DNA of 64,000 nucleotides from Psilocybe cubensis. Its lineage: Eukaryota. Position numbers and translations under genes: made by a program. Shown here one piece after another: positions 149 to 50,100 of this stretch. Position 1 is the stretch's first letter. The number at the start of each line of letters is the position of its first letter. The notes under the pieces are model-generated. The model saw only the letters and a program-made list of their open reading frames with translations, made no database searches and was not told where the DNA came from. The stretch is from NCBI GenBank assembly GCA_017499595.2, contig CM039006.1, positions 1 through 64,000 on the forward strand. The letters are read 5' to 3'.

Positions 149-739
149 CTAAACCTAAACCTAAACCCTAAACCCTAAACCCTAAGCCCTAACCTAACCC
201 CAACCCTAAGCTAACTAAGTCTAACCTTAGTAGGAAGTAAGGTAGGCGTGTGAACTTCCGAAAGGCATGTGATTGTGAAGGGCCGGATCTAATTTAGTAC
301 ATGGGAAAAGTTACTTAGTACCTCGGGAAAAGTTCCTTAGTACCGTGGAAACATTTTTGATGGACCGGATCATGAACTGTCCAATTAAGATTCACAACAA
401 TCAATCAATTGATTGTTAGGTAAGGACCCAGGTAAGCTATTTATACTCTTGACATGAGAATATTCCCATGTCACGGTTACTCGGAGCCACGTAACCAGAG
501 TATTTTATATCCATGTGATTCACATCACAGTCAATAACCCACGATGTCAAAGAACAAAAGTGTTGGATCCACTTTTGACAGGTTACCATGTGCCACATCG
601 ACCCGTGACACTCTGTTCATCAGAGATCTGTCTAACTTGACAATAAACATTGACAGATTTGTGATAGTCGGTAAGATACATGACAGCTGCGCAGCATCAC
701 TTCACGCGCTGTCATCGGATGTTCCAGAACATTCCTTCT

Positions 740-804
740 AAGAATAGCCACTGAAGAGTCTATAAAGACGAAAGGGCTGGCTGCTGATAACAATCAACAG
801 CCCT
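740..804 (+). ncRNA. 5' part of a hammerhead ribozyme, interrupted by the group I intron between U16.1 and C17
   Basis: CTGAAGA at 751, stem II GTCT-ATAA-AGAC, GAAA, stem III GGGCTG...CAGCCC-T804. The remainder (C-TGGCC) resumes at 1734. Confidence 0.88.
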
Positions 805-1733
805 CAAGTACTCGTCCTCTCCCAAACTCCTGCCGCTTGTGCCTTCCCAACTCATCCGGGAGCCCTTTCGTCACTGATCTTGCCCTTGACTCGGGGACGT
901 TTCATCGACATGTTGGCTGCCTCACGGCAAGCGGGGCCCTTTTTCTTTCACTCGCTCACGCCTTCTATGTTGGGTTACGGAGGTCATACAAACTCGTTTT
1001 AGTCTAGCTGCGGGGTTATCCAGCTATGATGACTTTGTAATTCGAGGGCGCGCAGTTCTTCAATGGGTATGGACATCAGGTGAGAGTACACTGGGGGTTG
1101 TCAGGACCAGCTCTGCTGGATACGCTCCTGGCAAGTCGGTTGCAGCCGGCGACACTACCGAATTGCTGGGACGTCCTAAAGCTTGTGGGTACCGCCGACC
1201 GCTGGAAACAGCCTAGGCACCGGTGGCGACCGGGTATGGTAACAATCCCCAAGATTCAGCGAAAGCTGGAATGGATAATCAGCAGCGAATCCGTAACGGT
1301 CACGCCGACGGAAGCGTTCAACGACTAGGTGGTAGTGGGGTCTTCGGATCTTAAGATATAGTCTTGGGAGTGGGGAAACCCACATCTGGTATCTAAACCG
1401 CGCCTCGCTGCTTACGAGGACGGCCCGAAGTCCAGAACCGCTTAAAACGCGGGTGACCCGGCCTCCCCTTAGTAAAGGGAGTTAACACAAGGATAGACAA
1501 ATAGTTCGTCGCCGGAAATGAACCTGTGGCTGTAATGGCTGATGTGGCGCCCCTTGGTAAAGGGCTTAAAGGGTATTAGCCTGCCATGTCCAATGGCATG
1601 AGAGTGTCCCTTGGTAAAGGACTTAATAGGCAATAGCCTGCTCTTTTGTCATGAGCGGTATGTAGTGATCGTTTGCCTGTACGGTAGCGCCCATTGCTTG
1701 CACTGGTCCACGCCCGTAAAAAATCACGAGCCG
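805..1733 (+). ncRNA. Group I self-splicing intron, IC1-like, 929 nt, no homing endonuclease ORF
   Basis: P AATTGCTGGGA 1161-1171, Q AATCAGCAGC 1277-1286, R GTTCAACGACTA 1316-1327, S AAGATATAGTC 1353-1363. P3 CACTACC 1153-1159/GGTAGTG 1331-1337; P7 GACTA/TAGTC; P8 with TTCG loop; P9 GTGGG-GAAA-CCCAC. 5' exon ends in T804, intron ends in G1733; IGS GGGGTTGT 1094-1101 pairs with exon ACAGCCCT. Precisely absent from 15 other hammerhead copies. Confidence 0.93.
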
Positions 1734-1845
1734 CTGGCCTTCTTTCCATTTAACTCACAGTTTAAACAAGTCGCTCGCACCTCGCTTCGCTCGGTGCTCG
1801 CTCCCCCCCTAAACCCAACGACTTTGCTATTACCCAACAGCTACT

Positions 1846-3001
1846 ATGTCTTCCACTTACTCTGCTGCCTTCTCTCGTGCCATGTCCCCCACCCTGGACG
1901 CACTCACCCAGGCTGTCGTCAACAACACAGTTTTTGGCGTCAACGACGAAGCTGGCCGCCACAACGCCCTCATCGACGAGTTGGCCACTGTCGTCATCAA
2001 GAAAATAGCTGAGTGCCGCTCCATTGACCAGATTGTAGACTGCGTCTTTTTTGACTATCGTGCTGCCCTTAGGGAGTTTCTCCTCAACCTCGCATCGTGG
2101 TGCGATAAGAGGGAAACAGTCAAGGCTAGCCTCGAGCGCCTTGAACTTGCCGTTAGCGCAGGCAACACCCCCAATCGCCTTCGGGTGAAGGCTCCCGAGT
2201 TCCAACTTACGAAGGAATTCGCGGATGCCGGGTCAGCGGAAGCTCTTCGAGTTTCCTCTACGTTCTCCACCGCTCGTGATGTCTTCCAAAAGGCAATCAA
2301 CGACGGCGCCATTCAGGCGAAAAAGGACGAACTGGCCTTTTGGGATGATAAATGCGCACTCAATAACTGTTATGAAGCTGCTGCCCTCATCGTTAAGACA
2401 ACTTACGATGATCGCAAATCCAGCTATAAGCTCCCCGTTTTCTCTACAGACAACAAGGGAGTTCGTCGAATAACAGATTGGGTAGTGTCACCGCAGAAGA
2501 AGGCTGAATGCAGCGCATTGCAAACCATTTTGCCAGCCATCTTCTCTCATATCAAACAGATTGTCAACTTGCGCCACCGCGCTTTGGCAATCAAGATTGA
2601 GAAAAAGCGGTCGACTGCGGCAACAGCCGATGTCGAGATGGCCGATGCGACCAAACCAGGTCCATCGATTCAATCCCTTATTGATAAGGGCTTGAATGCA
2701 CGTCTCAAGAAGCTCAACCTTGGATCTGTGGGCAAGAAGGCAAGTTCTCGTAACCCTTCACCCATAATTCTGGATACTAATTACTATTCTAATTACCCAG
2801 ACTTTGTCTGGCCAGAATTCGTCCAAGGCTCCTCAACCTCAGGCCAAGAAAGCTGGCCCTTCGAAATTCAAACCCTCGTCGACGCCTTCGCAGAAGAAGC
2901 CCCAAACCAAGGCTTCCAACAAGGTCGACAACAAGAAGAAAGGGAAGGGGAGAGCTCCCGTCAAGAACGATCCAAAGGGAAAGGGAAAGGCAAGAGCCTA
3001 G
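1846..3001 (+). CDS. Predicted spliced ORF1 protein (exons 1846-2739 and 2801-3001; 364 aa) with Lys-rich C-terminal tail
   Basis: Removing a 61-nt GCAAGT...CTAAT...CCCAG intron (2740-2800) joins ...VGKK in frame to TLSGQNSSKAPQ...KGKGKARA*. No spliced copy of this intron is present in the window. Confidence 0.65.
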
Positions 3002-5376
3002 ACGCGCGGTCTAATGTAGTACCTTTTACGTCGGTAAGACCCGCCTTCCCCAACTCTATTCCTGACGATATACTCACCATGACTAAAACAGACGCAGTTT
3101 CTTTTGTACACTTACATACGCCGATCTCATTCTTGTTGGCTGGCCAGTATCGTAGTAGTGTACACTGTAGTCCTGGTGTGGTGGTCCCTGTAGATATAGC
3201 AAATGATTTGTCACTCGGACTCAATTATATGTTTTTTACTCTGCCTTCTCAAAGTCTGATCATGCAAGCATGGAATGATTTTCAACGAAGAATAAGATGG
3301 CGTATCTATTTTTTGTTTAAGGAAGGCATGAACAAACCTTTTGATCCAGATTACGGAGTAAGCTCAAAAAAGAAAGAGAAACCTCCAGTATTACCGCAAT
3401 ACATGGAACTTGGCCTTTCGATGGGACGTCGGTACGTGCAACGCACGATCGCAAGTATCCCGGAAGAAGCCCTTACGGAGATGCGAAAGCACGCGTTCTC
3501 TCCTAAAAGGGACAAGATCCGTAAGTTTCTTATCGATAACAACTATGTTATTACGATGACAGATAAGAATCTTGGCCTCGCGGTGTCTGAACGCGACTGG
3601 ATATTAAGGAATGAGCTCAATCTTCTTGAAGATGAACGTAACTATGAAGAGTTAGAATTCGAAGTTGCGCAAGAAGTAATGAAGAGCAAAATGATCCAGA
3701 TGCAAACTCTTGCACGTACCGTCGAAGATGAACATCTGTTTCTATTTGAACTTGGGTTGTCTCGATTCTTTCTATCGAATGTACCGGAAGACGGATCATC
3801 GTTCAAGTATCCTCAATTTCATGGTATACCTAAAATCCACAAAAAACCTACTGGATTTAGGCCCATAATTCCGTGTCACTCTGTAGTATTTAATCCTGCA
3901 GCCAAGTTTGTATCAAAAGAGCTTAAGCCGATTATTAAATCGACTCCTTCAATCATTCACGGAACGAAGGATCTCTTTACGAGATTAAGCCAATTGCGTA
4001 TAGACCCCAAACGACAATGGTATTTTGTCACCGGGGATGTAGTTGCTTTCTATCCCAATATTCCGTTGGACTTGTGCATCGAAATCGTTTGTAATATGTA
4101 CGAGGAATGGTTACTCAACGCTTCGGAAGAAAACACTGCATTAGCCCATATTAATCCAAATTCGTTAGAGAATAACTTGGTTAAATTGGGCATCTTTAAA
4201 CGTGCTATCGAGATTGGCAATACGCAATTGATAACACAACATGGGTCTAGATATTTTAGACAAAAAAATGGCCTCGCAATGGGCGTCGCGGATTCTCCGG
4301 ACCTTGCTAACCTCTTTGGAGCCCATTTTGAAATAAAGTCAAAAATCTTAGACCACCCAAACGTGGCCTTCTATGGAAGGTACATCGACGATTGTTTCGC
4401 AATTGTTTACGCCGAGTCCGAAGCACTTGCACTTAATCTTATTAAAGAAACAATAAAGTTCGATGGTTGTGTTATCGAATGGGCTGTTTCCTCGTCGGGA
4501 TGTCAATTTCTCGATGCTTTCATATTCAAGGAGTCTGGAAAACTTCATTGGAAGCCATTTGTCAAGACAGGAAACAACCGAGAACGAGTTCCATGGGTAT
4601 CACATCATCCTTTGGACGTCAAACGTGGCGTCTACATTGGAGAGTTATCCAGGTTAGCCGTGCTATGTAGTACCAAGGAAATCTACATCGGAGCAATTAG
4701 AGACCTTAACGCTCTCTATTTGATGCGCGGTTATCCCGAAAACCTAGTCATGTCTTGGTGTAAGAAGAATATACAAGAACGTTGGGAAAAGCGATTCGCT
4801 TTACGAGTCGCAGAGCACGACGAATCCATTCTTGTACTTAAAACCAGATTTGATCAGGTATGGAATTGGTTTTCAGCTGCTGAACTTGGAAAAACTGTTA
4901 CCGAGTACTGGTCGGCATGGTATGAACATGCCGAGAAAGGTTTGTATAGTGCAGACTCGTCCAGACCCCTTATCAAACCAGATCCAAATTACGTTCACGA
5001 CCTCGATGATGTTCGCCCGGAGCTGTTCACACAGATCCTCGTGGACGGAGAAACTGAGTTCGTACCGGATTTGAGGAAGATAGGACTACTCGGAAGTCGT
5101 TGGATAGTATCGCGAAAACGCAATACTAATCTTTTCGACCTTGCAAATGTGTGGAAGAAAACAGTCTTTCGTAAACTGGATGAAGACATCGCTGAAAAAG
5201 GTGGTGTTGTTCCCGAAACTCAAAACGTTAATGAAACTTATCATTCTGCTTTAGTTGAAGCTGCTGAACAGATAAGTATCGAAAGTGATAACGAGATAAT
5301 ACTTCATAGACGTTCAATCTCACAAGAGAGGGAACATCCAGAATTCGGCAGAATATCCAAATCTTACAACCGATGA
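1846..5376 (+). CDS. Penelope-like element ORF1-RT protein, 1176 aa, subfamily A
   Basis: TDKN, FHGIPKIHK, FRPII, FVTGDVVAFYPNI, RQKNGLAMGVADSPDLANLF, YGRYIDD, FLD, then PLE-like thumb HHPLDVKRG; no endonuclease, RNase H or integrase motifs seen. Confidence 0.95.
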   Translation: MSSTYSAAFSRAMSPTLDALTQAVVNNTVFGVNDEAGRHNALIDELATVVIKKIAECRSIDQIVDCVFFDYRAALREFLLNLASWCDKRETVKASLERLELAVSAGNTPNRLRVKAPEFQLTKEFADAGSAEALRVSSTFSTARDVFQKAINDGAIQAKKDELAFWDDKCALNNCYEAAALIVKTTYDDRKSSYKLPVFSTDNKGVRRITDWVVSPQKKAECSALQTILPAIFSHIKQIVNLRHRALAIKIEKKRSTAATADVEMADATKPGPSIQSLIDKGLNARLKKLNLGSVGKKASSRNPSPIILDTNYYSNYPDFVWPEFVQGSSTSGQESWPFEIQTLVDAFAEEAPNQGFQQGRQQEEREGESSRQERSKGKGKGKSLDARSNVVPFTSVRPAFPNSIPDDILTMTKTDAVSFVHLHTPISFLLAGQYRSSVHCSPGVVVPVDIANDLSLGLNYMFFTLPSQSLIMQAWNDFQRRIRWRIYFLFKEGMNKPFDPDYGVSSKKKEKPPVLPQYMELGLSMGRRYVQRTIASIPEEALTEMRKHAFSPKRDKIRKFLIDNNYVITMTDKNLGLAVSERDWILRNELNLLEDERNYEELEFEVAQEVMKSKMIQMQTLARTVEDEHLFLFELGLSRFFLSNVPEDGSSFKYPQFHGIPKIHKKPTGFRPIIPCHSVVFNPAAKFVSKELKPIIKSTPSIIHGTKDLFTRLSQLRIDPKRQWYFVTGDVVAFYPNIPLDLCIEIVCNMYEEWLLNASEENTALAHINPNSLENNLVKLGIFKRAIEIGNTQLITQHGSRYFRQKNGLAMGVADSPDLANLFGAHFEIKSKILDHPNVAFYGRYIDDCFAIVYAESEALALNLIKETIKFDGCVIEWAVSSSGCQFLDAFIFKESGKLHWKPFVKTGNNRERVPWVSHHPLDVKRGVYIGELSRLAVLCSTKEIYIGAIRDLNALYLMRGYPENLVMSWCKKNIQERWEKRFALRVAEHDESILVLKTRFDQVWNWFSAAELGKTVTEYWSAWYEHAEKGLYSADSSRPLIKPDPNYVHDLDDVRPELFTQILVDGETEFVPDLRKIGLLGSRWIVSRKRNTNLFDLANVWKKTVFRKLDEDIAEKGGVVPETQNVNETYHSALVEAAEQISIESDNEIILHRRSISQEREHPEFGRISKSYNR
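5201..5254 (+). other. 54-nt in-frame GT-AG spliceosomal intron near the ORF end (retained in most copies)
   Basis: GTGGTG...TTCTGCTTTAG; precisely absent at the 22082/22083 junction (GCTGAAAAAG|TTGAAGCT). Confidence 0.7.
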
Positions 5377-5425
5377 AAAGAATACTAGCGCGTAAGGCGT
5401 AAAGCATTAGAAAAAAACCCTAACC

Positions 5426-5488
5426 GTAAGTATTCCTTGCTACAAAGTAACAAACATCTACTTACAAGCAACACATTGGATTAAATAG
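5426..5488 (+). other. 63-nt GT-AG spliceosomal intron in the 3' UTR (retained in most copies)
   Basis: GTAAGT...TACTTAC...AATAG; precisely absent at the 22253/22254 junction (CCCTAACC|CTAAACC). Confidence 0.85.
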
Positions 5489-5566
5489 CTAAACCTAAAC
5501 CTAAACCCTAAACCCTAAACCCTAAGCCCTAACCTAACCCCAACCCTAAGCTAACTAAGTCTAACC
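5489..5566 (+). repeat. Element-encoded degenerate telomere-like tract in the 3' UTR
   Basis: CTAAAC/CCCTAAA/CCCTAAG/CCTAA variants in a near-fixed order in each copy that spans the region. Confidence 0.85.
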
Positions 5567-6079
5567 TTAGTAGGAAGTAAGGTAGGCGTGTGAACTTCCG
5601 AAAGGCATGTGATTGTGAAGGGCCGGATCTAATTTAGTACATGGGAAAAGTTACTTAGTACCTCGGGAAAAGTTCCTTAGTACCGTGGAAACATTTTTGA
5701 TGGACCGGATCATGAACTGTCCAATTAAGATTCACAACAATCAATCAATTGATTGTTAGGTAAGGACCCAGGTAAGCTATTTATACTCTTGACATGAGAA
5801 TATTCCCATGTCACGGTTACTCGGAGCCACGTAACCAGAGTATTTTATATCCATGTGATTCACATCACAGTCAATAACCCACGATGTCAAAGAACAAAAG
5901 TGTTGGATCCACTTTTGACAGGTTACCATGTGCCACATCGACCCGTGACACTCTGTTCATCAGAGATCTGTCTAACTTGACAATAAACATTGACAGATTT
6001 GTGATAGTCGGTAAGATACATGACAGCTGCGCAGCATCACTTCACGCGCTGTCATCGGATGTTCCAGAACATTCCTTCT

Positions 6080-6155
6080 AAGAATAGCCACTGAAGAGTC
6101 TATAAAGACGAAAGGGCTGGCTGCTGATAACAATCAACAGCCCTCTGGCCTTCTT
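6080..6155 (+). ncRNA. Intact type I hammerhead ribozyme, predicted cleavage after C6145 (equivalent C17 at 10291, 15180, 15658, 16866, 17570, 21987, 22917, 27334, 28132, 32543, 36193, 38927, 42189, 42897)
   Basis: GCCA-CTGAAGA-GTCT(ATAA)AGAC-GAAA-GGGCTG...CAGCCC-TC-TGGC; distal stem III covaries between subfamilies (TGAT/ATCA vs TGGG/CCCA). Confidence 0.92.
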
Positions 6156-6224
6156 TCCATTTAACTCACAGTTTAAACAAGTCGCTCGCACCTCGCTTCG
6201 CTCGGTGCTCGCTCCCCCCCTAAA

Positions 6225-9200
6225 TCTCCTCAACCTCGCATCGTGGTGCGATAAGAGGGAAACAGTCAAGGCTAGCCTCGAGCGCCTTGAACTTGCCGTT
6301 AGCGCAGGCAACACCCCCAATCGCCTTCGGGTGAAGGCTCCCGAGTTCCAACTTACGAAGGAATTCGCGGATGCCGGGTCAGCGGAAGCTCTTCGAGTTT
6401 CCTCTACGTTCTCCACCGCTCGTGATGTCTTCCAAAAGGCAATCAACGACGGCGCCATTCAGGCGAAAAAGGACGAACTGGCCTTTTGGGATGATAAATG
6501 CGCACTCAATAACTGTTATGAAGCTGCTGCCCTCATCGTTAAGACAACTTACGATGATCGCAAATCCAGCTATAAGCTCCCCGTTTTCTCTACAGACAAC
6601 AAGGGAGTTCGTCGAATAACAGATTGGGTAGTGTCACCGCAGAAGAAGGCTGAATGCAGCGCATTGCAAACCATTTTGCCAGCCATCTTCTCTCATATCA
6701 AACAGATTGTCAACTTGCGCCACCGCGCTTTGGCAATCAAGATTGAGAAAAAGCGGTCGACTGCGGCAACAGCCGATGTCGAGATGGCCGATGCGACCAA
6801 ACCAGGTCCATCGATTCAATCCCTTATTGATAAGGGCTTGAATGCACGTCTCAAGAAGCTCAACCTTGGATCTGTGGGCAAGAAGGCAAGTTCTCGTAAC
6901 CCTTCACCCATAATTCTGGATACTAATTACTATTCTAATTACCCAGACTTTGTCTGGCCAGAATTCGTCCAAGGCTCCTCAACCTCAGGCCAAGAAAGCT
7001 GGCCCTTCGAAATTCAAACCCTCGTCGACGCCTTCGCAGAAGAAGCCCCAAACCAAGGCTTCCAACAAGGTCGACAACAAGAAGAAAGGGAAGGGGAGAG
7101 CTCCCGTCAAGAACGATCCAAAGGGAAAGGGAAAGGCAAGAGCCTAGACGCGCGGTCTAATGTAGTACCTTTTACGTCGGTAAGACCCGCCTTCCCCAAC
7201 TCTATTCCTGACGATATACTCACCATGACTAAAACAGACGCAGTTTCTTTTGTACACTTACATACGCCGATCTCATTCTTGTTGGCTGGCCAGTATCGTA
7301 GTAGTGTACACTGTAGTCCTGGTGTGGTGGTCCCTGTAGATATAGCAAATGATTTGTCACTCGGACTCAATTATATGTTTTTTACTCTGCCTTCTCAAAG
7401 TCTGATCATGCAAGCATGGAATGATTTTCAACGAAGAATAAGATGGCGTATCTATTTTTTGTTTAAGGAAGGCATGAACAAACCTTTTGATCCAGATTAC
7501 GGAGTAAGCTCAAAAAAGAAAGAGAAACCTCCAGTATTACCGCAATACATGGAACTTGGCCTTTCGATGGGACGTCGGTACGTGCAACGCACGATCGCAA
7601 GTATCCCGGAAGAAGCCCTTACGGAGATGCGAAAGCACGCGTTCTCTCCTAAAAGGGACAAGATCCGTAAGTTTCTTATCGATAACAACTATGTTATTAC
7701 GATGACAGATAAGAATCTTGGCCTCGCGGTGTCTGAACGCGACTGGATATTAAGGAATTAGCTCAATCTTCTTGAAGATGAACGTAACTATGAAGAGTTA
7801 GAATTCGAAGTTGCGCAAGAAGTAATGAAGAGCAAAATGATCCAGATGCAAACTCTTGCACGTACCGTCGAAGATGAACATCTGTTTCTATTTGAACTTG
7901 GGTTGTCTCGATTCTTTCTATCGAATGTACCGGAAGACGGATCATCGTTCAAGTATCCTCAATTTCATGGTATACCTAAAATCCACAAAAAACCTACTGG
8001 ATTTAGGCCCATAATTCCGTGTCACTCTGTAGTATTTAATCCTGCAGCCAAGTTTGTATCAAAAGAGCTTAAGCCGATTATTAAATCGACTCCTTCAATC
8101 ATTCACGGAACGAAGGATCTCTTTACGAGATTAAGCCAATTGCGTATAGACCCCAAACGACAATGGTATTTTGTCACCGGGGATGTAGTTGCTTTCTATC
8201 CCAATATTCCGTTGGACTTGTGCATCGAAATCGTTTGTAATATGTACGAGGAATGGTTACTCAACGCTTCGGAAGAAAACACTGCATTAGCCCATATTAA
8301 TCCAAATTCGTTAGAGAATAACTTGGTTAAATTGGGCATCTTTAAACGTGCTATCGAGATTGGCAATACGCAATTGATAACACAACATGGGTCTAGATAT
8401 TTTAGACAAAAAAATGGCCTCGCAATGGGCGTCGCGGATTCTCCGGACCTTGCTAACCTCTTTGGAGCCCATTTTGAAATAAAGTCAAAAATCTTAGACC
8501 ACCCAAACGTGGCCTTCTATGGAAGGTACATCGACGATTGTTTCGCAATTGTTTACGCCGAGTCCGAAGCACTTGCACTTAATCTTATTAAAGAAACAAT
8601 AAAGTTCGATGGTTGTGTTATCGAATGGGCTGTTTCCTCGTCGGGATGTCAATTTCTCGATGCTTTCATATTCAAGGAGTCTGGAAAACTTCATTGGAAG
8701 CCATTTGTCAAGACAGGAAACAACCGAGAACGAGTTCCATGGGTATCACATCATCCTTTGGACGTCAAACGTGGCGTCTACATTGGAGAGTTATCCAGGT
8801 TAGCCGTGCTATGTAGTACCAAGGAAATCTACATCGGAGCAATTAGAGACCTTAACGCTCTCTATTTGATGCGCGGTTATCCCGAAAACCTAGTCATGTC
8901 TTGGTGTAAGAAGAATATACAAGAACGTTGGGAAAAGCGATTCGCTTTACGAGTCGCAGAGCACGACGAATCCATTCTTGTACTTAAAACCAGATTTGAT
9001 CAGGTATGGAATTGGTTTTCAGCTGCTGAACTTGGAAAAACTGTTACCGAGTACTGGTCGGCATGGTATGAACATGCCGAGAAAGGTTTGTATAGTGCAG
9101 ACTCGTCCAGACCCCTTATCAAACCAGATCCAAATTACGTTCACGACCTCGATGATGTTCGCCCGGAGCTGTTCACACAGATCCTCGTGGACGGAGAAAC

Positions 9201-10370: not shown

Positions 10371-10410
10371 ACCCTAAACCCTAAACCCTAAAACCTAAAC
10401 CCTAAACCCT

Positions 10411-10768
10411 AAACCCACATCTGGTATCTAAACCGCGCCTCGCTGCTTACGAGGACGGCCCGAAGTCCAGAACCGCTTAAAACGCGGGTGACCCGGCCTC
10501 CCCTTAGTAAAGGGAGTTAACACAAGGATGGACAAATAGTTCGTCGCCGGAAATGAACCTGTGGCTGTAATGGCTGATGTGGCGCCCCTTGGTAAAGGGC
10601 TTAAAGGGTATTAGCCTGCCATGTCCAATGGCATGAGAGTGTCCCTTGGTAAAGGACTTAATAGGCAATAGCCTGCTCTTTTGTCATGAGCGGTATGTAG
10701 TGATCGTTTGCCTGTACGGTAGCGCCCATTGCTTGCACTGGTCCACGCCCGTAAAAAATCACGAGCCG
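10411..10768 (+). ncRNA. 5'-truncated second copy of the group I intron (P9 loop to terminal G)
   Basis: Matches 1376-1733 with one substitution noticed (10530); catalytic core missing. Confidence 0.88.
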
Positions 10769-10880
10769 CTGGCCTTCTTTCCATTTAACTCACAGTTTAA
10801 ACAAGTCGCTCGCACCTCGCTTCGCTCGGTGCTCGCTCCCCCCCTAAACCCAACGACTTTGCTATTACCCAACAGCTACT

Positions 10881-13800
10881 ATGTCTTCCACTTACTCTGC
10901 TGCCTTCTCTCGTGCCATGTCCCCCACCCTGGACGCACTCACCCAGGCTGTCGTCAACAACACAGTTTTTGGCGTCAACGACGAAGCTGGCCGCCACAAC
11001 GCCCTCATCGACGAGTTGGCCACTGTCGTCATCAAGAAAATAGCTGAGTGCCGCTCCATTGACCAGATTGTAGACTGCGTCTTTTTTGACTATCGTGCTG
11101 CCCTTAGGGAGTTTCTCCTCAACCTCGCATCGTGGTGCGATAAGAGGGAAACAGTCAAGGCTAGCCTCGAGCGCCTTGAACTTGCCGTTAGCGCAGGCAA
11201 CACCCCCAATCGCCTTCGGGTGAAGGCTCCCGAGTTCCAACTTACGAAGGAATTCGCGGATGCCGGGTCAGCGGAAGCTCTTCGAGTTTCCTCTACGTTC
11301 TCCACCGCTCGTGATGTCTTCCAAAAGGCAATCAACGACGGCGCCATTCAGGCGAAAAAGGACGAACTGGCCTTTTGGGATGATAAATGCGCACTCAATA
11401 ACTGTTATGAAGCTGCTGCCCTCATCGTTAAGACAACTTACGATGATCGCAAATCCAGCTATAAGCTCCCCGTTTTCTCTACAGACAACAAGGGAGTTCG
11501 TCGAATAACAGATTGGGTAGTGTCACCGCAGAAGAAGGCTGAATGCAGCGCATTGCAAACCATTTTGCCAGCCATCTTCTCTCATATCAAACAGATTGTC
11601 AACTTGCGCCACCGCGCTTTGGCAATCAAGATTGAGAAAAAGCGGTCGACTGCGGCAACAGCCGATGTCGAGATGGCCGATGCGACCAAACCAGGTCCAT
11701 CGATTCAATCCCTTATTGATAAGGGCTTGAATGCACGTCTCAAGAAGCTCAACCTTGGATCTGTGGGCAAGAAGGCAAGTTCTCGTAACCCTTCACCCAT
11801 AATTCTGGATACTAATTACTATTCTAATTACCCAGACTTTGTCTGGCCAGAATTCGTCCAAGGCTCCTCAACCTCAGGCCAAGAAAGCTGGCCCTTCGAA
11901 ATTCAAACCCTCGTCGACGCCTTCGCAGAAGAAGCCCCAAACCAAGGCTTCCAACAAGGTCGACAACAAGAAGAAAGGGAAGGGGAGAGCTCCCGTCAAG
12001 AACGATCCAAAGGGAAAGGGAAAGGCAAGAGCCTAGACGCGCGGTCTAATGTAGTACCTTTTACGTCGGTAAGACCCGCCTTCCCCAACTCTATTCCTGA
12101 CGATATACTCACCATGACTAAAACAGACGCAGTTTCTTTTGTACACTTACATACGCCGATCTCATTCTTGTTGGCTGGCCAGTATCGTAGTAGTGTACAC
12201 TGTAGTCCTGGTGTGGTGGTCCCTGTAGATATAGCAAATGATTTGTCACTCGGACTCAATTATATGTTTTTTACTCTGCCTTCTCAAAGTCTGATCATGC
12301 AAGCATGGAATGATTTTCAACGAAGAATAAGATGGCGTATCTATTTTTTGTTTAAGGAAGGCATGAACAAACCTTTTGATCCAGATTACGGAGTAAGCTC
12401 AAAAAAGAAAGAGAAACCTCCAGTATTACCGCAATACATGGAACTTGGCCTTTCGATGGGACGTCGGTACGTGCAACGCACGATCGCAAGTATCCCGGAA
12501 GAAGCCCTTACGGAGATGCGAAAGCACGCGTTCTCTCCTAAAAGGGACAAGATCCGTAAGTTTCTTATCGATAACAACTATGTTATTACGATGACAGATA
12601 AGAATCTTGGCCTCGCGGTGTCTGAACGCGACTGGATATTAAGGAATGAGCTCAATCTTCTTGAAGATGAACGTAACTATGAAGAGTTAGAATTCGAAGT
12701 TGCGCAAGAAGTAATGAAGAGCAAAATGATCCAGATGCAAACTCTTGCACGTACCGTCGAAGATGAACATCTGTTTCTATTTGAACTTGGGTTGTCTCGA
12801 TTCTTTCTATCGAATGTACCGGAAGACGGATCATCGTTCAAGTATCCTCAGTTTCATGGTATACCTAAAATCCACAAAAAACCTACTGGATTTAGGCCCA
12901 TAATTCCGTGTCACTCTGTAGTATTTAATCCTGCAGCCAAGTTTGTATCAAAAGAGCTTAAGCCGATTATTAAATCGACTCCTTCAATCATTCACGGAAC
13001 GAAGGATCTCTTTACGAGATTAAGCCAATTGCGTATAGACCCCAAACGACAATGGTATTTTGTCACCGGGGATGTAGTTGCTTTCTATCCCAATATTCCG
13101 TTGGACTTGTGCATCGAAATCGTTTGTAATATGTACGAGGAATGGTTACTCAACGCTTCGGAAGAAAACACTGCATTAGCCCATATTAATCCAAATTCGT
13201 TAGAGAATAACTTGGTTAAATTGGGCATCTTTAAACGTGCTATCGAGATTGGCAATACGCAATTGATAACACAACATGGGTCTAGATATTTTAGACAAAA
13301 AAATGGCCTCGCAATGGGCGTCGCGGATTCTCCGGACCTTGCTAACCTCTTTGGAGCCCATTTTGAAATAAAGTCAAAAATCTTAGACCACCCAAACGTG
13401 GCCTTCTATGGAAGGTACATCGACGATTGTTTCGCAATTGTTTACGCCGAGTCCGAAGCACTTGCACTTAATCTTATTAAAGAAACAATAAAGTTCGATG
13501 GTTGTGTTATCGAATGGGCTGTTTCCTCGTCGGGATGTCAATTTCTCGATGCTTTCATATTCAAGGAGTCTGGAAAACTTCATTGGAAGCCATTTGTCAA
13601 GACAGGAAACAACCGAGAACGAGTTCCATGGGTATCACATCATCCTTTGGACGTCAAACGTGGCGTCTACATTGGAGAGTTATCCAGGTTAGCCGTGCTA
13701 TGTAGTACCAAGGAAATCTACATCGGAGCAATTAGAGACCTTAACGCTCTCTATTTGATGCGCGGTTATCCCGAAAACCTAGTCATGTCTTGGTGTAAGA

Positions 13801-14411
13801 AGAATATACAAGAACGTTGGGAAAAGCGATTCGCTTTACGAGTCGCAGAGCACGACGAATCCATTCTTGTACTTAAAACCAGATTTGATCAGGTATGGAA
13901 TTGGTTTTCAGCTGCTGAACTTGGAAAAACTGTTACCGAGTACTGGTCGGCATGGTATGAACATGCCGAGAAAGGTTTGTATAGTGCAGACTCGTCCAGA
14001 CCCCTTATCAAACCAGATCCAAATTACGTTCACGACCTCGATGATGTTCGCCCGGAGCTGTTCACACAGATCCTCGTGGACGGAGAAACTGAGTTCGTAC
14101 CGGATTTGAGGAAGATAGGACTACTCGGAAGTCGTTGGATAGTATCGCGAAAACGCAATACTAATCTTTTCGACCTTGCAAATGTGTGGAAGAAAACAGT
14201 CTTTCGTAAACTGGATGAAGACATCGCTGAAAAAGGTGGTGTTGTTCCCGAAACTCAAAACGTTAATGAAACTTATCATTCTGCTTTAGTTGAAGCTGCT
14301 GAACAGATAAGTATCGAAAGTGATAACGAGATAATACTTCATAGACGTTCAATCTCACAAGAGAGGGAACATCCAGAATTCGGCAGAATATCCAAATCTT
14401 ACAACCGATGA
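10881..14411 (+). CDS. Penelope-like ORF1-RT protein, 1176 aa, subfamily A
   Basis: Translation matches 1846-5376. Confidence 0.95.
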   Translation: MSSTYSAAFSRAMSPTLDALTQAVVNNTVFGVNDEAGRHNALIDELATVVIKKIAECRSIDQIVDCVFFDYRAALREFLLNLASWCDKRETVKASLERLELAVSAGNTPNRLRVKAPEFQLTKEFADAGSAEALRVSSTFSTARDVFQKAINDGAIQAKKDELAFWDDKCALNNCYEAAALIVKTTYDDRKSSYKLPVFSTDNKGVRRITDWVVSPQKKAECSALQTILPAIFSHIKQIVNLRHRALAIKIEKKRSTAATADVEMADATKPGPSIQSLIDKGLNARLKKLNLGSVGKKASSRNPSPIILDTNYYSNYPDFVWPEFVQGSSTSGQESWPFEIQTLVDAFAEEAPNQGFQQGRQQEEREGESSRQERSKGKGKGKSLDARSNVVPFTSVRPAFPNSIPDDILTMTKTDAVSFVHLHTPISFLLAGQYRSSVHCSPGVVVPVDIANDLSLGLNYMFFTLPSQSLIMQAWNDFQRRIRWRIYFLFKEGMNKPFDPDYGVSSKKKEKPPVLPQYMELGLSMGRRYVQRTIASIPEEALTEMRKHAFSPKRDKIRKFLIDNNYVITMTDKNLGLAVSERDWILRNELNLLEDERNYEELEFEVAQEVMKSKMIQMQTLARTVEDEHLFLFELGLSRFFLSNVPEDGSSFKYPQFHGIPKIHKKPTGFRPIIPCHSVVFNPAAKFVSKELKPIIKSTPSIIHGTKDLFTRLSQLRIDPKRQWYFVTGDVVAFYPNIPLDLCIEIVCNMYEEWLLNASEENTALAHINPNSLENNLVKLGIFKRAIEIGNTQLITQHGSRYFRQKNGLAMGVADSPDLANLFGAHFEIKSKILDHPNVAFYGRYIDDCFAIVYAESEALALNLIKETIKFDGCVIEWAVSSSGCQFLDAFIFKESGKLHWKPFVKTGNNRERVPWVSHHPLDVKRGVYIGELSRLAVLCSTKEIYIGAIRDLNALYLMRGYPENLVMSWCKKNIQERWEKRFALRVAEHDESILVLKTRFDQVWNWFSAAELGKTVTEYWSAWYEHAEKGLYSADSSRPLIKPDPNYVHDLDDVRPELFTQILVDGETEFVPDLRKIGLLGSRWIVSRKRNTNLFDLANVWKKTVFRKLDEDIAEKGGVVPETQNVNETYHSALVEAAEQISIESDNEIILHRRSISQEREHPEFGRISKSYNR

Positions 14412-27475: not shown

Positions 27476-30400
27476 CTAAACCTAAACCTAAACCCTAAAC
27501 CCTAAACCCTAAGCCCTAACCTAACCCCAACCCTAAGCTAACTAAGTCTAACCTTAGTAGGAAGTAAGGTAGGCGTGTGAACTTCCGAAAGGCATGTGAT
27601 TGTGAAGGGCCGGATCTAATTTAGTACATGGGAAAAGTTACTTAGTACCTCGGGAAAAGTTCCTTAGTACCGTGGAAACATTTTTGATGGACCGGATCAT
27701 GAACTGTCCAATTAAGATTCACAACAATCAATCAATTGATTGTTAGGTAAGGACCCAGGTAAGCTATTTATACTCTTGACATGAGAATATTCCCATGTCA
27801 CGGTTACTCGGAGCCACGTAACCAGAGTATTTTATATCCATGTGATTCACATCACAGTCAATAACCCACGATGTCAAAGAACAAAAGTGTTGGATCCACT
27901 TTTGACAGGTTACCATGTGCCACATCGACCCGTGACACTCTGTTCATCAGAGATCTGTCTAACTTGACAATAAACATTGACAGATTTGTGATAGTCGGTA
28001 AGATACATGACAGCTGCGCAGCATCACTTCACGCGCTGTCATCGGATGTTCCAGAACATTCCTTCTAAGAATAGCCACTGAAGAGTCTATAAAGACGAAA
28101 GGGCTGGCTGCTGATAACAATCAACAGCCCTCTGGCCTTCTTTCCATTTAACTCACAGTTTAAACAAGTCGCTCGCACCTCGCTTCGCTCGGTGCTCGCT
28201 CCCCCCCTAAACCCAACGACTTTGCTATTACCCAACAGCTACTATGTCTTCCACTTACTCTGCTGCCTTCTCTCGTGCCATGTCCCCCACCCTGGACGCA
28301 CTCACCCAGGCTGTCGTCAACAACACAGTTTTTGGCGTCAACGACGAAGCTGGCCGCCACAACGCCCTCATCGACGAGTTGGCCACTGTCGTCATCAAGA
28401 AAATAGCTGAGTGCCGCTCCATTGACCAGATTGTAGACTGCGTCTTTTTTGACTATCGTGCTGCCCTTAGGGAGTTTCTCCTCAACCTCGCATCGTGGTG
28501 CGATAAGAGGGAAACAGTCAAGGCTAGCCTCGAGCGCCTTGAACTTGCCGTTAGCGCAGGCAACACCCCCAATCGCCTTCGGGTGAAGGCTCCCGAGTTC
28601 CAACTTACGAAGGAATTCGCGGATGCCGGGTCAGCGGAAGCTCTTCGAGTTTCCTCTACGTTCTCCACCGCTCGTGATGTCTTCCAAAAGGCAATCAACG
28701 ACGGCGCCATTCAGGCGAAAAAGGACGAACTGGCCTTTTGGGATGATAAATGCGCACTCAATAACTGTTATGAAGCTGCTGCCCTCATCGTTAAGACAAC
28801 TTACGATGATCGCAAATCCAGCTATAAGCTCCCCGTTTTCTCTACAGACAACAAGGGAGTTCGTCGAATAACAGATTGGGTAGTGTCACCGCAGAAGAAG
28901 GCTGAATGCAGCGCATTGCAAACCATTTTGCCAGCCATCTTCTCTCATATCAAACAGATTGTCAACTTGCGCCACCGCGCTTTGGCAATCAAGATTGAGA
29001 AAAAGCGGTCGACTGCGGCAACAGCCGATGTCGAGATGGCCGATGCGACCAAACCAGGTCCATCGATTCAATCCCTTATTGATAAGGGCTTGAATGCACG
29101 TCTCAAGAAGCTCAACCTTGGATCTGTGGGCAAGAAGGCAAGTTCTCGTAACCCTTCACCCATAATTCTGGATACTAATTACTATTCTAATTACCCAGAC
29201 TTTGTCTGGCCAGAATTCGTCCAAGGCTCCTCAACCTCAGGCCAAGAAAGCTGGCCCTTCGAAATTCAAACCCTCGTCGACGCCTTCGCAGAAGAAGCCC
29301 CAAACCAAGGCTTCCAACAAGGTCGACAACAAGAAGAAAGGGAAGGGGAGAGCTCCCGTCAAGAACGATCCAAAGGGAAAGGGAAAGGCAAGAGCCTAGA
29401 CGCGCGGTCTAATGTAGTACCTTTTACGTCGGTAAGACCCGCCTTCCCCAACTCTATTCCTGACGATATACTCACCATGACTAAAACAGACGCAGTTTCT
29501 TTTGTACACTTACATACGCCGATCTCATTCTTGTTGGCTGGCCAGTATCGTAGTAGTGTACACTGTAGTCCTGGTGTGGTGGTCCCTGTAGATATAGCAA
29601 ATGATTTGTCACTCGGACTCAATTATATGTTTTTTACTCTGCCTTCTCAAAGTCTGATCATGCAAGCATGGAATGATTTTCAACGAAGAATAAGATGGCG
29701 TATCTATTTTTTGTTTAAGGAAGGCATGAACAAACCTTTTGATCCAGATTACGGAGTAAGCTCAAAAAAGAAAGAGAAACCTCCAGTATTACCGCAATAC
29801 ATGGAACTTGGCCTTTCGATGGGACGTCGGTACGTGCAACGCACGATCGCAAGTATCCCGGAAGAAGCCCTTACGGAGATGCGAAAGCACGCGTTCTCTC
29901 CTAAAAGGGACAAGATCCGTAAGTTTCTTATCGATAACAACTATGTTATTACGATGACAGATAAGAATCTTGGCCTCGCGGTGTCTGAACGCGACTGGAT
30001 ATTAAGGAATGAGCTCAATCTTCTTGAAGATGAACGTAACTATGAAGAGTTAGAATTCGAAGTTGCGCAAGAAGTAATGAAGAGCAAAATGATCCAGATG
30101 CAAACTCTTGCACGTACCGTCGAAGATGAACATCTGTTTCTATTTGAACTTGGGTTGTCTCGATTCTTTCTATCGAATGTACCGGAAGACGGATCATCGT
30201 TCAAGTATCCTCAATTTCATGGTATACCTAAAATCCACAAAAAACCTACTGGATTTAGGCCCATAATTCCGTGTCACTCTGTAGTATTTAATCCTGCAGC
30301 CAAGTTTGTATCAAAAGAGCTTAAGCCGATTATTAAATCGACTCCTTCAATCATTCACGGAACGAAGGATCTCTTTACGAGATTAAGCCAATTGCGTATA

Positions 30401-32622
30401 GACCCCAAACGACAATGGTATTTTGTCACCGGGGATGTAGTTGCTTTCTATCCCAATATTCCGTTGGACTTGTGCATCGAAATCGTTTGTAATATGTACG
30501 AGGAATGGTTACTCAACGCTTCGGAAGAAAACACTGCATTAGCCCATATTAATCCAAATTCGTTAGAGAATAACTTGGTTAAATTGGGCATCTTTAAACG
30601 TGCTATCGAGATTGGCAATACGCAATTGATAACACAACATGGGTCTAGATATTTTAGACAAAAAAATGGCCTCGCAATGGGCGTCGCGGATTCTCCGGAC
30701 CTTGCTAACCTCTTTGGAGCCCATTTTGAAATAAAGTCAAAAATCTTAGACCACCCAAACGTGGCCTTCTATGGAAGGTACATCGACGATTGTTTCGCAA
30801 TTGTTTACGCCGAGTCCGAAGCACTTGCACTTAATCTTATTAAAGAAACAATAAAGTTCGATGGTTGTGTTATCGAATGGGCTGTTTCCTCGTCGGGATG
30901 TCAATTTCTCGATGCTTTCATATTCAAGGAGTCTGGAAAACTTCATTGGAAGCCATTTGTCAAGACAGGAAACAACCGAGAACGAGTTCCATGGGTATCA
31001 CATCATCCTTTGGACGTCAAACGTGGCGTCTACATTGGAGAGTTATCCAGGTTAGCCGTGCTATGTAGTACCAAGGAAATCTACATCGGAGCAATTAGAG
31101 ACCTTAACGCTCTCTATTTGATGCGCGGTTATCCCGAAAACCTAGTCATGTCTTGGTGTAAGAAGAATATACAAGAACGTTGGGAAAAGCGATTCGCTTT
31201 ACGAGTCGCAGAGCACGACGAATCCATTCTTGTACTTAAAACCAGATTTGATCAGGTATGGAATTGGTTTTCAGCTGCTGAACTTGGAAAAACTGTTACC
31301 GAGTACTGGTCGGCATGGTATGAACATGCCGAGAAAGGTTTGTATAGTGCAGACTCGTCCAGACCCCTTATCAAACCAGATCCAAATTACGTTCACGACC
31401 TCGATGATGTTCGCCCGGAGCTGTTCACACAGATCCTCGTGGACGGAGAAACTGAGTTCGTACCGGATTTGAGGAAGATAGGACTACTCGGAAGTCGTTG
31501 GATAGTATCGCGAAAACGCAATACTAATCTTTTCGACCTTGCAAATGTGTGGAAGAAAACAGTCTTTCGTAAACTGGATGAAGACATCGCTGAAAAAGGT
31601 GGTGTTGTTCCCGAAACTCAAAACGTTAATGAAACTTATCATTCTGCTTTAGTTGAAGCTGCTGAACAGATAAGTATCGAAAGTGATAACGAGATAATAC
31701 TTCATAGACGTTCAATCTCACAAGAGAGGGAACATCCAGAATTCGGCAGAATATCCAAATCTTACAACCGATGAAAAGAATACTAGCGCGTAAGGCGTAA
31801 AGCATTAGAAAAAAACCCTAACCGTAAGTATTCCTTGCTACAAAGTAACAAACATCTACTTACAAGCAACACATTGGATTAAATAGCTAAACCTAAACCT
31901 AAACCCTAAACCCTAAACCCTAAGCCCTAACCTAACCCCAACCCTAAGCTAACTAAGTCTAACCTTAGTAGGAAGTAAGGTAGGCGTGTGAACTTCCGAA
32001 AGGCATGTGATTGTGAAGGGCCGGATCTAATTTAGTACATGGGAAAAGTTACTTAGTACCTCGGGAAAAGTTCCTTAGTACCGTGGAAACATTTTTGATG
32101 GACCGGATCATGAACTGTCCAATTAAGATTCACAACAATCAATCAATTGATTGTTAGGTAAGGACCCAGGTAAGCTATTTATACTCTTGACATGAGAATA
32201 TTCCCATGTCACGGTTACTCGGAGCCACGTAACCAGAGTATTTTATATCCATGTGATTCACATCACAGTCAATAACCCACGATGTCAAAGAACAAAAGTG
32301 TTGGATCCACTTTTGACAGGTTACCATGTGCCACATCGACCCGTGACACTCTGTTCATCAGAGATCTGTCTAACTTGACAATAAACATTGACAGATTTGT
32401 GATAGTCGGTAAGATACATGACAGCTGCGCAGCATCACTTCACGCGCTGTCATCGGATGTTCCAGAACATTCCTTCTAAGAATAGCCACTGAAGAGTCTA
32501 TAAAGACGAAAGGGCTGGCTGCTGATAACAATCAACAGCCCTCTGGCCTTCTTTCCATTTAACTCACAGTTTAAACAAGTCGCTCGCACCTCGCTTCGCT
32601 CGGTGCTCGCTCCCCCCCTAAA
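27476..32622 (+). mobile_element. Unit 8 (subfamily A): partial 3' UTR + intron-less hammerhead + full ORF + 3' UTR
   Basis: UTR repeated at a 4411-bp period; same layout as unit 1 minus the 929-nt intron; preceded by telomeric tract ~27406-27475. Confidence 0.9.
28244..31774 (+). CDS. Penelope-like ORF1-RT protein, 1176 aa, subfamily A
   Basis: Translation matches 1846-5376. Confidence 0.95.
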   Translation: MSSTYSAAFSRAMSPTLDALTQAVVNNTVFGVNDEAGRHNALIDELATVVIKKIAECRSIDQIVDCVFFDYRAALREFLLNLASWCDKRETVKASLERLELAVSAGNTPNRLRVKAPEFQLTKEFADAGSAEALRVSSTFSTARDVFQKAINDGAIQAKKDELAFWDDKCALNNCYEAAALIVKTTYDDRKSSYKLPVFSTDNKGVRRITDWVVSPQKKAECSALQTILPAIFSHIKQIVNLRHRALAIKIEKKRSTAATADVEMADATKPGPSIQSLIDKGLNARLKKLNLGSVGKKASSRNPSPIILDTNYYSNYPDFVWPEFVQGSSTSGQESWPFEIQTLVDAFAEEAPNQGFQQGRQQEEREGESSRQERSKGKGKGKSLDARSNVVPFTSVRPAFPNSIPDDILTMTKTDAVSFVHLHTPISFLLAGQYRSSVHCSPGVVVPVDIANDLSLGLNYMFFTLPSQSLIMQAWNDFQRRIRWRIYFLFKEGMNKPFDPDYGVSSKKKEKPPVLPQYMELGLSMGRRYVQRTIASIPEEALTEMRKHAFSPKRDKIRKFLIDNNYVITMTDKNLGLAVSERDWILRNELNLLEDERNYEELEFEVAQEVMKSKMIQMQTLARTVEDEHLFLFELGLSRFFLSNVPEDGSSFKYPQFHGIPKIHKKPTGFRPIIPCHSVVFNPAAKFVSKELKPIIKSTPSIIHGTKDLFTRLSQLRIDPKRQWYFVTGDVVAFYPNIPLDLCIEIVCNMYEEWLLNASEENTALAHINPNSLENNLVKLGIFKRAIEIGNTQLITQHGSRYFRQKNGLAMGVADSPDLANLFGAHFEIKSKILDHPNVAFYGRYIDDCFAIVYAESEALALNLIKETIKFDGCVIEWAVSSSGCQFLDAFIFKESGKLHWKPFVKTGNNRERVPWVSHHPLDVKRGVYIGELSRLAVLCSTKEIYIGAIRDLNALYLMRGYPENLVMSWCKKNIQERWEKRFALRVAEHDESILVLKTRFDQVWNWFSAAELGKTVTEYWSAWYEHAEKGLYSADSSRPLIKPDPNYVHDLDDVRPELFTQILVDGETEFVPDLRKIGLLGSRWIVSRKRNTNLFDLANVWKKTVFRKLDEDIAEKGGVVPETQNVNETYHSALVEAAEQISIESDNEIILHRRSISQEREHPEFGRISKSYNR

Positions 32623-32666
32623 ACCCTAAACCCTAAACCCTAAACCCTAAACCCTAAACCCTAAAC

Positions 32667-50000: not shown

Positions 50001-50100
50001 NNNNNNNNNNNNNNNNNNNNNNNNNNNNNNNNNNNNNNNNNNNNNNNNNNNNNNNNNNNNNNNNNNNNNNNNNNNNNNNNNNNNNNNNNNNNNNNNNNNN
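50001..50100. other. Assembly gap (100 N)
   Basis: Run of N. Confidence 1.

Follow-up and report, generated by a model that had tools for sequence, protein, structure and literature searches.

The DNA analysed here, hereafter called the window, is a stretch of 64,000 nt at a chromosome end of the fungus Psilocybe cubensis (assembly GCA_017499595.2, contig CM039006.1, positions 1 to 64,000 of the forward strand). Thirteen head-to-tail copies of one retroelement, which we assign to the Penelope-like elements (PLEs), fill positions 1-42979, all of them on the + strand, which reads CCCTAAA, and 25 telomere-type tracts of this CCCTAAA repeat within the array separate most of the copies. The reference unit (1735-6145) comprises an 82-nt leader or 'tail', an open reading frame (ORF) of 1176 codons, a short 3' untranslated region (UTR), a telomere-like patch, a non-coding stretch of about 580 nt and a hammerhead ribozyme motif. 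One of the 16 hammerhead motifs of the window is interrupted by a precise insert of 929 nt at 805-1733, and our analysis revealed that this insert is a genuine group I intron that contains no ORF. It is the only case we have found of a splicing ribozyme lying within the catalytic core of a self-cleaving ribozyme.

The limits of the insert follow from comparison with the 15 intact copies. Its flanks (75 and 95 nt) are identical letter for letter to eight of them, which share the same helix III variant, and the remaining seven differ in distal helix III and in the tail. The uninterrupted junction CAGCCCT/CTGGC matched 15 times in the window, always on the + strand, where 0.19 matches were expected and none of 100 shuffles reached 15. 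By sequence alone the insert could span either 805-1733 or 806-1734, a 1-nt ambiguity that arises because C is the first base of the insert and also of the 3' flank. The second option falls exactly on the hammerhead cleavage site and would make the insert end in C; only 805/1733 places a U (U804) before the intron and gives it a terminal G (G1733, the omega-G). Beyond this ambiguity the insert, which lies in sense orientation, shows neither extra bases nor a target duplication. The guanine plus cytosine (GC) content of the insert is 53.9% (52.6-54.5% in its three parts), compared with 44.7% in the element, and since it is even across the insert and above that of the element, the insert gives the impression of a single foreign unit over all its 929 nt. 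Open frames situated mainly in the insert do not exceed 108 codons, and no Pfam family reached its cut-off with the seven frames of 57-108 codons. A homing-endonuclease remnant was considered and rejected, the seven frames yielding only two matches below the cut-off (E values of 0.11 and 0.17). We also rejected a ribosomal DNA (rDNA) or mitochondrial origin of this copy, based on its low read depth and on the lack of any ribosomal RNA (rRNA) family in 600-1900 at E values up to 10; for rDNA this rejection covers introns at least 90% identical, and an rDNA intron of lower identity would escape it.

The identification as a group I intron was made with the covariance model RF00028, which matched 1008-1385 on the + strand with 73 bits (gathering score 50; E value 1.3e-16) over model positions 1-253 of 253 and is the sole Rfam family that reached its gathering score in the window. 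A helix model from P1 to P9, derived from the Rfam alignment and direct pairing, contains 64 nested pairs and six pairs of the P7 pseudoknot, all of them canonical (Table 1). In P7, GACUA (1323-1327) pairs with UAGUC (1359-1363) and A1321 with U1364. This P7 pairing would be the guanosine-binding site, as in group I introns in general, and the joining segment J8/7 and the 3' strand of P7 agree with the upper-case consensus positions of RF00028. All 16 pairs of P1 and its extension also appear in unconstrained folds. The architecture is IC1-like, with P2, P2.1 and a 96-nt P5 extension, as judged by the P5 criterion given in PMC9548176, where a larger and more complex P5 figures as the IC1 hallmark. 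Large inserts in peripheral elements, P1 included, are described for nuclear introns (PMC3679873). In the 3' peripheral domain, two segments of about 35 nt (1549-1584 and 1605-1640) are each predicted to form a small hairpin pair, and Tandem Repeats Finder (TRF) detected no tandem repeat.

The core letters of the split hammerhead occur contiguously in the 15 intact copies, with four pairs in stem I, four in stem II, and seven plus a distal stem in helix III. Distal helix III comes in three variants in the window and a fourth in the reads; the distal stem is present in two of the three window variants, and in the third the distal segment is paired only in the unconstrained fold. All of these variants belong to a single element family and do not represent independent lineages. 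The Rfam hammerhead models stayed under their cut-offs, RF03152 with 29.1 and 23.0 bits (cut-off 56.3; best E value 0.037 in a 2.6-kb search) and RF00008 with 19.5 bits (cut-off 48.5), and every core position aligns to RF03152/RF00008. In RNAfold, the canonical hammerhead fold lay 1.4-2.3 kcal/mol above the minimum free energy (MFE) in three intact variants. Our assignment to type I is based on the complete core, the three helices and the literature precedent (PMC4209133), in which the hammerheads of fungal PLEs appear as atypical variants of type I whose helix III is long and whose helices I and II are short, and the Serpula lacrymans hammerhead is reported to cleave as a monomer. In the intact hammerheads (e.g. 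6087-6152), a doubled GGCUG at the start of helix III permits a shifted register, and in an alternative fold of lower energy the 3' strand of stem I pairs with the start of helix III. This predicted fold could be a built-in inactive conformer.

An earlier note on this DNA, made from the letters alone, had described a group I intron with its core pairings, a U-ending 5' exon and a terminal G, and had counted fifteen other hammerheads with the exact ligated junction, all of which our results bear out. The same applies to its placement of the insert between U16.1 and C17 of a telomeric PLE hammerhead. Its limits of 805-1733 stand by virtue of the U and G ends, though not by sequence alone, and of the covariance models that it had named as a check, that for group I introns matched above its cut-off and those for hammerheads below theirs. 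The distant guide, the 1-nt ambiguity and the second copy of the intron are absent from the note.

Table 1. Coordinates of the intron, the interrupted hammerhead and the surrounding element copies in the window.
Feature	Position	Strand	Details
Group I intron	805..1733	+	U804 before it, omega-G G1733 at its end; RF00028
L1 insertion (P1 loop), ~270 nt	814..1083	+	Closed by P1 extension 805-806/1092-1093 and 808-813/1084-1089
Internal guide sequence GGGGUUGU	1094..1101	+	Pairs with 5' exon ACAGCCCU (797-804); G1094-U804 wobble
P2 and P2.1	1102..1150	+	P2 1102-1106/1126-1130, inner hairpin 1107-1119; P2.1 1135-1140/1145-1150; assigned by canonical pairing
Catalytic core	1153..1385	+	Rfam alignment and pair check
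P3	1153-1159/1331-1337		
P4	1164-1169/1279-1284		
P5	1174-1176/1273-1275		96-nt extension 1177-1272
P6	1285-1286/1316-1317		
P6a	1290-1293/1309-1312		
P7	1321-1327/1359-1364		Pseudoknot
P8	1338-1342/1347-1351		
P9	1370-1374/1379-1383		GAAA loop
3' peripheral domain, ~347 nt	1386..1732	+	From P9 to omega-G; two similar ~35-nt segments
Hammerhead, 5' portion	747..804	+	Stem I 5' strand 747-750, CUGAAGA 751-757, stem II 758-761/766-769, GAA 770-772
Hammerhead helix III	773-779/798-804		Distal extension; A773-U804 = A15.1-U16.1; C17 = 1734; stem I 747-750/1735-1738
5' pseudo-LTR (long terminal repeat) part of unit A	149..804	+	From telomere-like repeats to U16.1; 100% identical to reference-unit 3755-4411
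C17, stem I 3' strand and 82-nt tail	1734..1816	+	C17 = 1734; UGGC 1735-1738; tail end CCCTAAACCC
Unit A ORF, 1176 aa, reverse transcriptase	1846..5376	+	99-100% identity to Psilocybe cubensis proteins
Unit A intact 3' hammerhead and tail	6087..6224	+	Sequence, fold
Telomere tract abutting the short intron copy	10372..10413	+	AAACCC common with intron P9 loop and 3' strand (1376-1381)
Second intron copy, 5'-truncated	10411..10768	+	Insert positions 572-929; leads into unit B 10770-15262
Unit C	27476..32625	+	Unit A architecture, intact hammerhead, without the intron

The guide of the intron, GGGGUUGU, lies immediately 5' of P2 and about 290 nt from the 5' splice site, an unusually large distance that is bridged by the closed P1 extension. 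When possible P1 sites were ranked by duplex energy, the real target ACAGCCCU was the best of 1157 sense U sites with -11.0 kcal/mol (the next ones reach -10.3 and -7.8), and it was also better than all 1315 antisense U sites of the element. Among the 257 8-mers of the intron that start with G, the one at position 1094 ranks first by the same measure. The target strand is at the same time the 3' strand of helix III, so that the two ribozymes compete for it, and on paper the intron wins: the extended P1 duplex reaches -24.4 kcal/mol compared with -11.2 kcal/mol for the helix III hairpin, and the MFE fold of 735-1160 holds P1 rather than helix III (-139.1 versus -131.6). In the precursor RNA, extended P1 would outcompete helix III, and with C17 and stem I 929 nt away the hammerhead would be switched off. 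Guanosine-dependent splicing would then join U16.1 to C17 and give an intact hammerhead; exon ligation at 804/1734 would yield exactly the sequence of the 15 intact motifs.

The intron is found a second time in the window. Positions 572-929 of the insert recur with one difference in 358 nt in a copy that begins in the P9 hairpin, immediately behind a telomere tract, and continues through the same 3' junction into the complete unit B. Since this copy begins in the intron right after telomere repeats, intron-containing RNA was reverse-transcribed, and in an array formed by telomere-primed reverse transcription with 5' truncation the copy looks like an incomplete complementary DNA (cDNA) of such an RNA. 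Unspliced RNA has served as a template at least twice. The telomere joint (10405-10416) falls in the P9 hairpin of the intron (1370-1383), in the AAACCC stretch of its GAAA loop and 3' strand. Two explanations offer themselves: a stall of reverse transcription at the folded core, or preferential capping of a cDNA end that resembled telomere repeats.

We then compared sequencing reads with positions 500-2100, namely the raw reads of the genomic run X16, which comes from an independent study, and contigs of three other runs, each from a different further study. The intron is present in all four runs, and thus in four studies, and one contig of the run X8 (record 21) spans 1216-1774 and crosses the 3' junction. 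Together with the second copy in the window, these data led us to reject an assembly chimera, which the earlier note had named as a possible undoing of its reading. In X16 the summed depth was about 1240-1610 for the pseudo-LTR, 78-119 for the intron and 283-335 for the 5' end of the ORF. Relative to the flanking repeat the intron depth is thus about 1/14, and relative to the ORF 5' end about 1/3, indicating that the intron resides in a minority of the repeats and in about one in three of the copies whose ORF start is preserved, a level far from that of rDNA. If a genome of about 40-47 Mb is assumed, about three intron copies can be estimated from the size of the run. X16 shows polymorphism at eight sites of the intron or more, so there must be several copies with slight differences, and the A at 1495 is private to the copy in unit A of the window. 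Among the variants in other runs, T>C at 1349 turns a G-U pair of P8 into G-C and G>A at 1170 shifts J4/5 towards the Rfam consensus; both are structure-friendly in the helix model, and we take them as a sign that the core has probably been kept. Among the matches listed, no loose read end puts the intron in another context. Several strains or labels thus contain the intron.

Unit C is identical to unit A over 619 nt (186-804) plus 4491 nt, with 0 differences in 5,110 nt, and only the intron distinguishes them. From this comparison, unit C would be either the intron-less progenitor or a retro-copy of spliced RNA. Among the five units of the window that keep the ORF 5' end and read through the 5' hammerhead, two carry the intron and three do not. 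These observations bear on the question of whether the intron is kept for gating the hammerhead, so that unspliced RNAs would remain uncut templates and spliced RNAs would be cut and meet another fate, for example as messenger RNA (mRNA). P1 and helix III are indeed mutually exclusive and ligation recreates the intact motif; the intron is frequent among the units with an ORF 5' end, both in the window and by X16 depth; and in X8 the core appears less variable than the P1-loop insert, with 13 differences and 2 gaps in 153 nt (948-1100) compared with 1 difference in 166 nt and 11 differences and 3 gaps in 559 nt elsewhere. However, 15 of the 16 hammerheads in the window lack the intron, and since three of the five read-through units do so as well, the upstream part can be kept without the intron. 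In addition, a cleavage footprint is missing from all 18 tails, and despite the 15 intact hammerheads none of the units begins at U1.1 or has its end at C17; the array DNA thus bears no sign of template RNAs cleaved at either end and gives no indirect support for cleavage. A neutral passenger predicts the same data, and we consider a regulatory switch of this kind improbable. The earlier note had proposed a nested two-ribozyme system in which self-cleavage is impossible until the intron splices. The structural logic of this proposal held up, with P1 taking the 3' strand of helix III, C17 lying 929 nt away and ligation restoring the motif, while its functional part, a working system, found no support: unspliced RNA templated the second copy, and no cleavage footprint was detected in the array.

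The host appears to be an endonuclease-lacking, telomere-attached PLE of the Coprina type, as judged by architecture and reverse transcriptase (RT) core. This Coprina/Athena-type assignment is based on an RT ORF without an endonuclease and on head-to-tail telomeric units with a hammerhead and variable 5' truncation. RVT_1 scored 28.1 bits on the excised RT core of the 1176-aa ORF, just below the cut-off of 29.6, and 34.7 bits on the homolog P0075, and the ORF translation contains a YIDD motif. Neither a GIY-YIG endonuclease domain nor any other Pfam family was detected in the ORF, for which whole-ORF hmmscan gave no match; near-identical database proteins list PF00078, PF28514 and PF26215, the two newer of which probably lie outside the Pfam copy searched, and a PDB sequence search with the ORF returned 0 matches. 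All 13 units end with a hammerhead and the 82-nt tail, the last bases of which are CCCTAAACCC. The array contains 18 tails, of which 13 are unit-terminal and five run on into the 5' UTR of their own unit. Telomere-type repeats follow 12 of the 13 unit-terminal tails, the exception being that of unit A (6224). Twelve unit 5' ends are visible and variably truncated, five of them reaching upstream through a second, 5' hammerhead, and units longer than one element length (pseudo-LTR, ORF, pseudo-LTR) are common. Four units match the reference unit at 100.0%, and over 4491 nt units A and C show no difference and units A and B one. This near-zero divergence suggests that the intron marks a currently active element lineage. 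The features of the array agree with the published model for endonuclease-lacking PLEs, as far as it is laid out in PMC8557442 and PMC13159263, in which attachment to the G-rich telomere overhang takes place via reverse-complement telomere repeats beside the hammerhead.

Some further features of the array were observed. The telomere unit is the 7-nt CCCTAAA (TTTAGGG on the opposite strand), with the variants CCCTAA and CCTAAA, at 78-185 and in 24 other tracts; a 6-nt unit is usual in most fungi. The tail of unit A (6146-6225) ends after 79 nt at TAAA and is fused to ORF position 345 of the next, 5'-truncated unit. This joint is devoid of telomere repeats, which are found at all other unit junctions with a visible tract. 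An assembly gap of 100 N (50001-50100) lies in the unique subtelomeric part outside the array.

Based on these observations, we suggest, with moderate confidence, that the intron reverse-spliced into RNA of the element, was fixed by the element's RT and is now a passenger of one sublineage. Given that the intron is real, we regard entry by reverse splicing as quite likely, because the insert has the sense orientation, exact U and G ends, a guide target of rank 1 and complementarity limited to the 5' exon. A limitation of complementarity to the 5' exon is the pattern described in PMC1299323 for rDNA sites that are thought to have been reached by reverse splicing. First, the free intron RNA would have paired its guide GGGGUUGU with ACAGCCCU in the element transcript. 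Second, it would have integrated into this RNA by reverse splicing, and third, the element's own RT would have copied the chimeric RNA onto the chromosome end. Later, intron-containing RNA again served as a template, as the second copy shows, and the intron would have been carried along as a passenger of one element sublineage. We think that the intron is selfish rather than regulatory, and a selfish passenger explains everything seen.

The main rival on the origin of the insert is a capture by template jumping, in which the RT, having reached U1.1 of a cleaved RNA, would jump to free intron RNA and then to the 3' end of another cleaved RNA. This would explain the choice of the site, since the 1-nt ambiguity permits 806-1734, exactly at the cleavage site, and multi-length units, which are common in the array, are often ascribed to template jumps (compare PMC8557442 on pseudo-LTRs and tails). 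However, an insert at 806-1734 starts 1 nt inside the intron and ends 1 nt past the omega-G, and so does not match an excised intron. The capture would also leave a guide-flank match of rank 1 among 1157 and the wobble at the junction to chance or later adaptation, and it presupposes cleaved ends, none of which was found in the array. We therefore hold a template jump to be unlikely. Insertion at the DNA level, whether by ectopic recombination or end-joining of intron DNA or cDNA or by homing with an endonuclease acting in trans, has nothing specific in its favor. The exact intron ends, the lack of extra bases and of a target duplication beyond 1 nt, the sense orientation and the guide matching the flank all speak against it, as does the lack of an endonuclease gene or a recognisable remnant in the insert, and we consider such an event highly improbable.

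Here, we need to consider several points that weigh against the reading of the insert as a functional intron that arrived by reverse splicing. First, P10 comprises only one base pair, C1734-G1093. P10 is dispensable in some group I introns, and the single pair is a weakness rather than an exclusion from group I. Second, J4/5 is GAC where the model consensus is AAA. Third, the unconstrained MFE fold contains 27 of the 64 model pairs (every pair of P1, P6 and P9, but no pair of any other helix), the helix model lies 14.7 kcal/mol above the MFE, and the folds of 790-1160 and 1360-1745, flanks included, are no better than those of shuffles (z of -0.85 and -0.63). Fourth, when contiguous pairs were counted with G-U allowed, nine sites reached eight pairs and so did 2000 of 2000 shuffles; this count is uninformative because a guide of only G and U pairs with half of all bases, and duplex (stacking) energy was used in its place for the ranking of P1. 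Fifth, the guide may have adapted after insertion, which would weaken the argument from its rank and could blur the arguments for both reverse splicing and a template jump. Sixth, the best P1 site lies 1 nt from the hammerhead cleavage site, an unexplained coincidence under reverse splicing. Seventh, unit C is possibly the intron-less ancestor and not a product of splicing. Finally, no donor was found by a metagenome scan for the R...S core pattern (at least 120 loci), in which BLAST gave core matches only, over 33-56 nt at 78-88%.

Some of these points lead to the alternative that the intron arrived in the same way and has since lost splicing, leaving the 5' hammerhead permanently broken, with the RT provided in trans and 5' cleavage dispensable. 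Such a dead relic would be consistent with retro-copies that stem from unspliced RNA, with the weak P10 and the off-consensus J4/5, and with the large peripheral inserts (about 270 and 347 nt), and many rDNA introns of lichen fungi are reported not to self-splice (PMC8527467). On the other hand, the core scores 23 bits above the cut-off, the helices are canonical, the P7 strands and J8/7 are at consensus, the variants in other runs are compatible with the structure, and unit C, identical and intron-less, is the expected product of a reverse-transcribed spliced RNA. We take the loss of splicing seriously as a possibility without favoring it. We lean slightly towards an intron that still splices in vivo at some level.

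Ten of the metagenome loci were scanned with Rfam at gathering score (three of them also at E values up to 0.001), and they proved to be dense intron arrays without an rRNA match, which says nothing about the donor. As a side observation, numerous group I ribozymes stand in close succession in the metagenome contigs L001 (3528-8587), L098, L110, L011 and L108. In L001, RF00028 matched 11 times (E values up to 0.001) within about 5 kb, with spacers down to 11-59 nt and a GC content of 35%; its ribozymes are 42-71% identical to each other, and no rRNA family was found in it at E values up to 0.001. One of its spacers translates to a motif that we take to be that of giant-virus major capsid proteins, and on the basis of this presumed motif, L001 may be a heavily intron-split viral protein gene.

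According to reviews of 2013-2022, nuclear group I introns are confined to rRNA genes (PMC3679873, PMC8395846, PMC9223047), and the present intron is an exception to this rule; the earlier note had called such introns known almost only from rDNA. How these introns reach new sites has long been explained by a pathway in which the intron reverse-splices into an RNA that is then reverse-transcribed and integrated. Experimental evidence for the complete pathway is described as still lacking (PMC3679873), and the availability of RT has been named as a likely limiting factor (PMC1299323). In the present case, the RNA invaded is itself a retroelement template, and the element codes for an RT of its own, which makes the reverse-splicing route testable in a cultivable fungus, and the telomere-capped copy that starts inside the intron means that intron-bearing RNA really entered the genome. 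The intron looks like a natural trace of the route by reverse splicing and reverse transcription. One could go further and regard an active intron and the element as a composite mobile unit, in which splicing would sort transcripts into uncut templates and cut RNAs and unit C would be a retro-copy of a spliced transcript. We regard this as unlikely; were it true, the complete reverse-splicing pathway would here be seen for the first time in nature, and outside rDNA. Even as a mere passenger, the intron extends the known niche of group I introns. A literature search by title and abstract, with subscription journals and supplements out of reach, revealed no group I intron in a PLE, in a hammerhead or at a nuclear non-rDNA locus, and within this scope the arrangement is apparently undescribed, as the earlier note had supposed. 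The parts are known, and what is new is the host context and the nesting.

Detailed comparison with known systems shows what the intron shares with each of them. Compared with nuclear rDNA introns of the IC1 subgroup (Tetrahymena Tth.L1925 type), it has the same P3-P9, P7 pseudoknot, J8/7, U-G wobble and omega-G, and likewise P2, P2.1 and a large P5 extension (here 96 nt), with the subgroup judged by architecture. While those introns sit in rRNA genes, the present one sits in the transcript of a telomeric retroelement, with P10 near absent and the guide about 290 nt off. The interrupted hammerhead is of the same type I as those of fungal PLEs described by Cervera and De la Pena in 2014 (PMC4209133), with the same pseudo-LTR location and long helix III, but differs from them in that the core is split by a 929-nt ribozyme in one copy lineage. 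In the accessible text of PMC4209133 and PMC8557442, group I introns figure only as carriers of GIY-YIG nucleases.

Combinations of ribozymes with mobile elements or with each other are known from other systems. The IStrons of Firmicutes and Fusobacteria, as described in PMC4227781, likewise combine a group I ribozyme with a transposable element, where the element provides mobility and the ribozyme could neutralise the insertion in RNA. However, IStrons are bacterial, are transposed as DNA and are spliced from host genes as a unit, whereas here the intron is a passenger in the non-coding RNA of a retroelement, carries neither a transposase nor an ORF and is itself enclosed by its mobile partner, so the likeness is one of analogy only. 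Twin-ribozyme introns (GIR1 inside GIR2; PMC2219692) also consist of two nested ribozymes, one of which is able to affect the processing of the other; there, the branching ribozyme lies in a peripheral loop and both belong to the intron, while here a splicing ribozyme lies in the hammerhead core of the host element. In the discontinuous hammerheads of mammalian Clec2 3' UTRs (PMC2950038), the parts are likewise hundreds of nt apart. The Clec2 insert is located in loop 1 or loop 3 and is expected to be harmless, while the present insert lies between 16.1 and 17, beside the scissile bond, so that hammerhead activity is expected only after its removal. Finally, mobile group II introns similarly combine a ribozyme with an RT route in which reverse splicing is followed by cDNA synthesis. 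Group II introns encode the RT and reverse-splice into DNA, whereas the ORF-less intron described here would enter RNA and borrow the RT of the very RNA that it invades.

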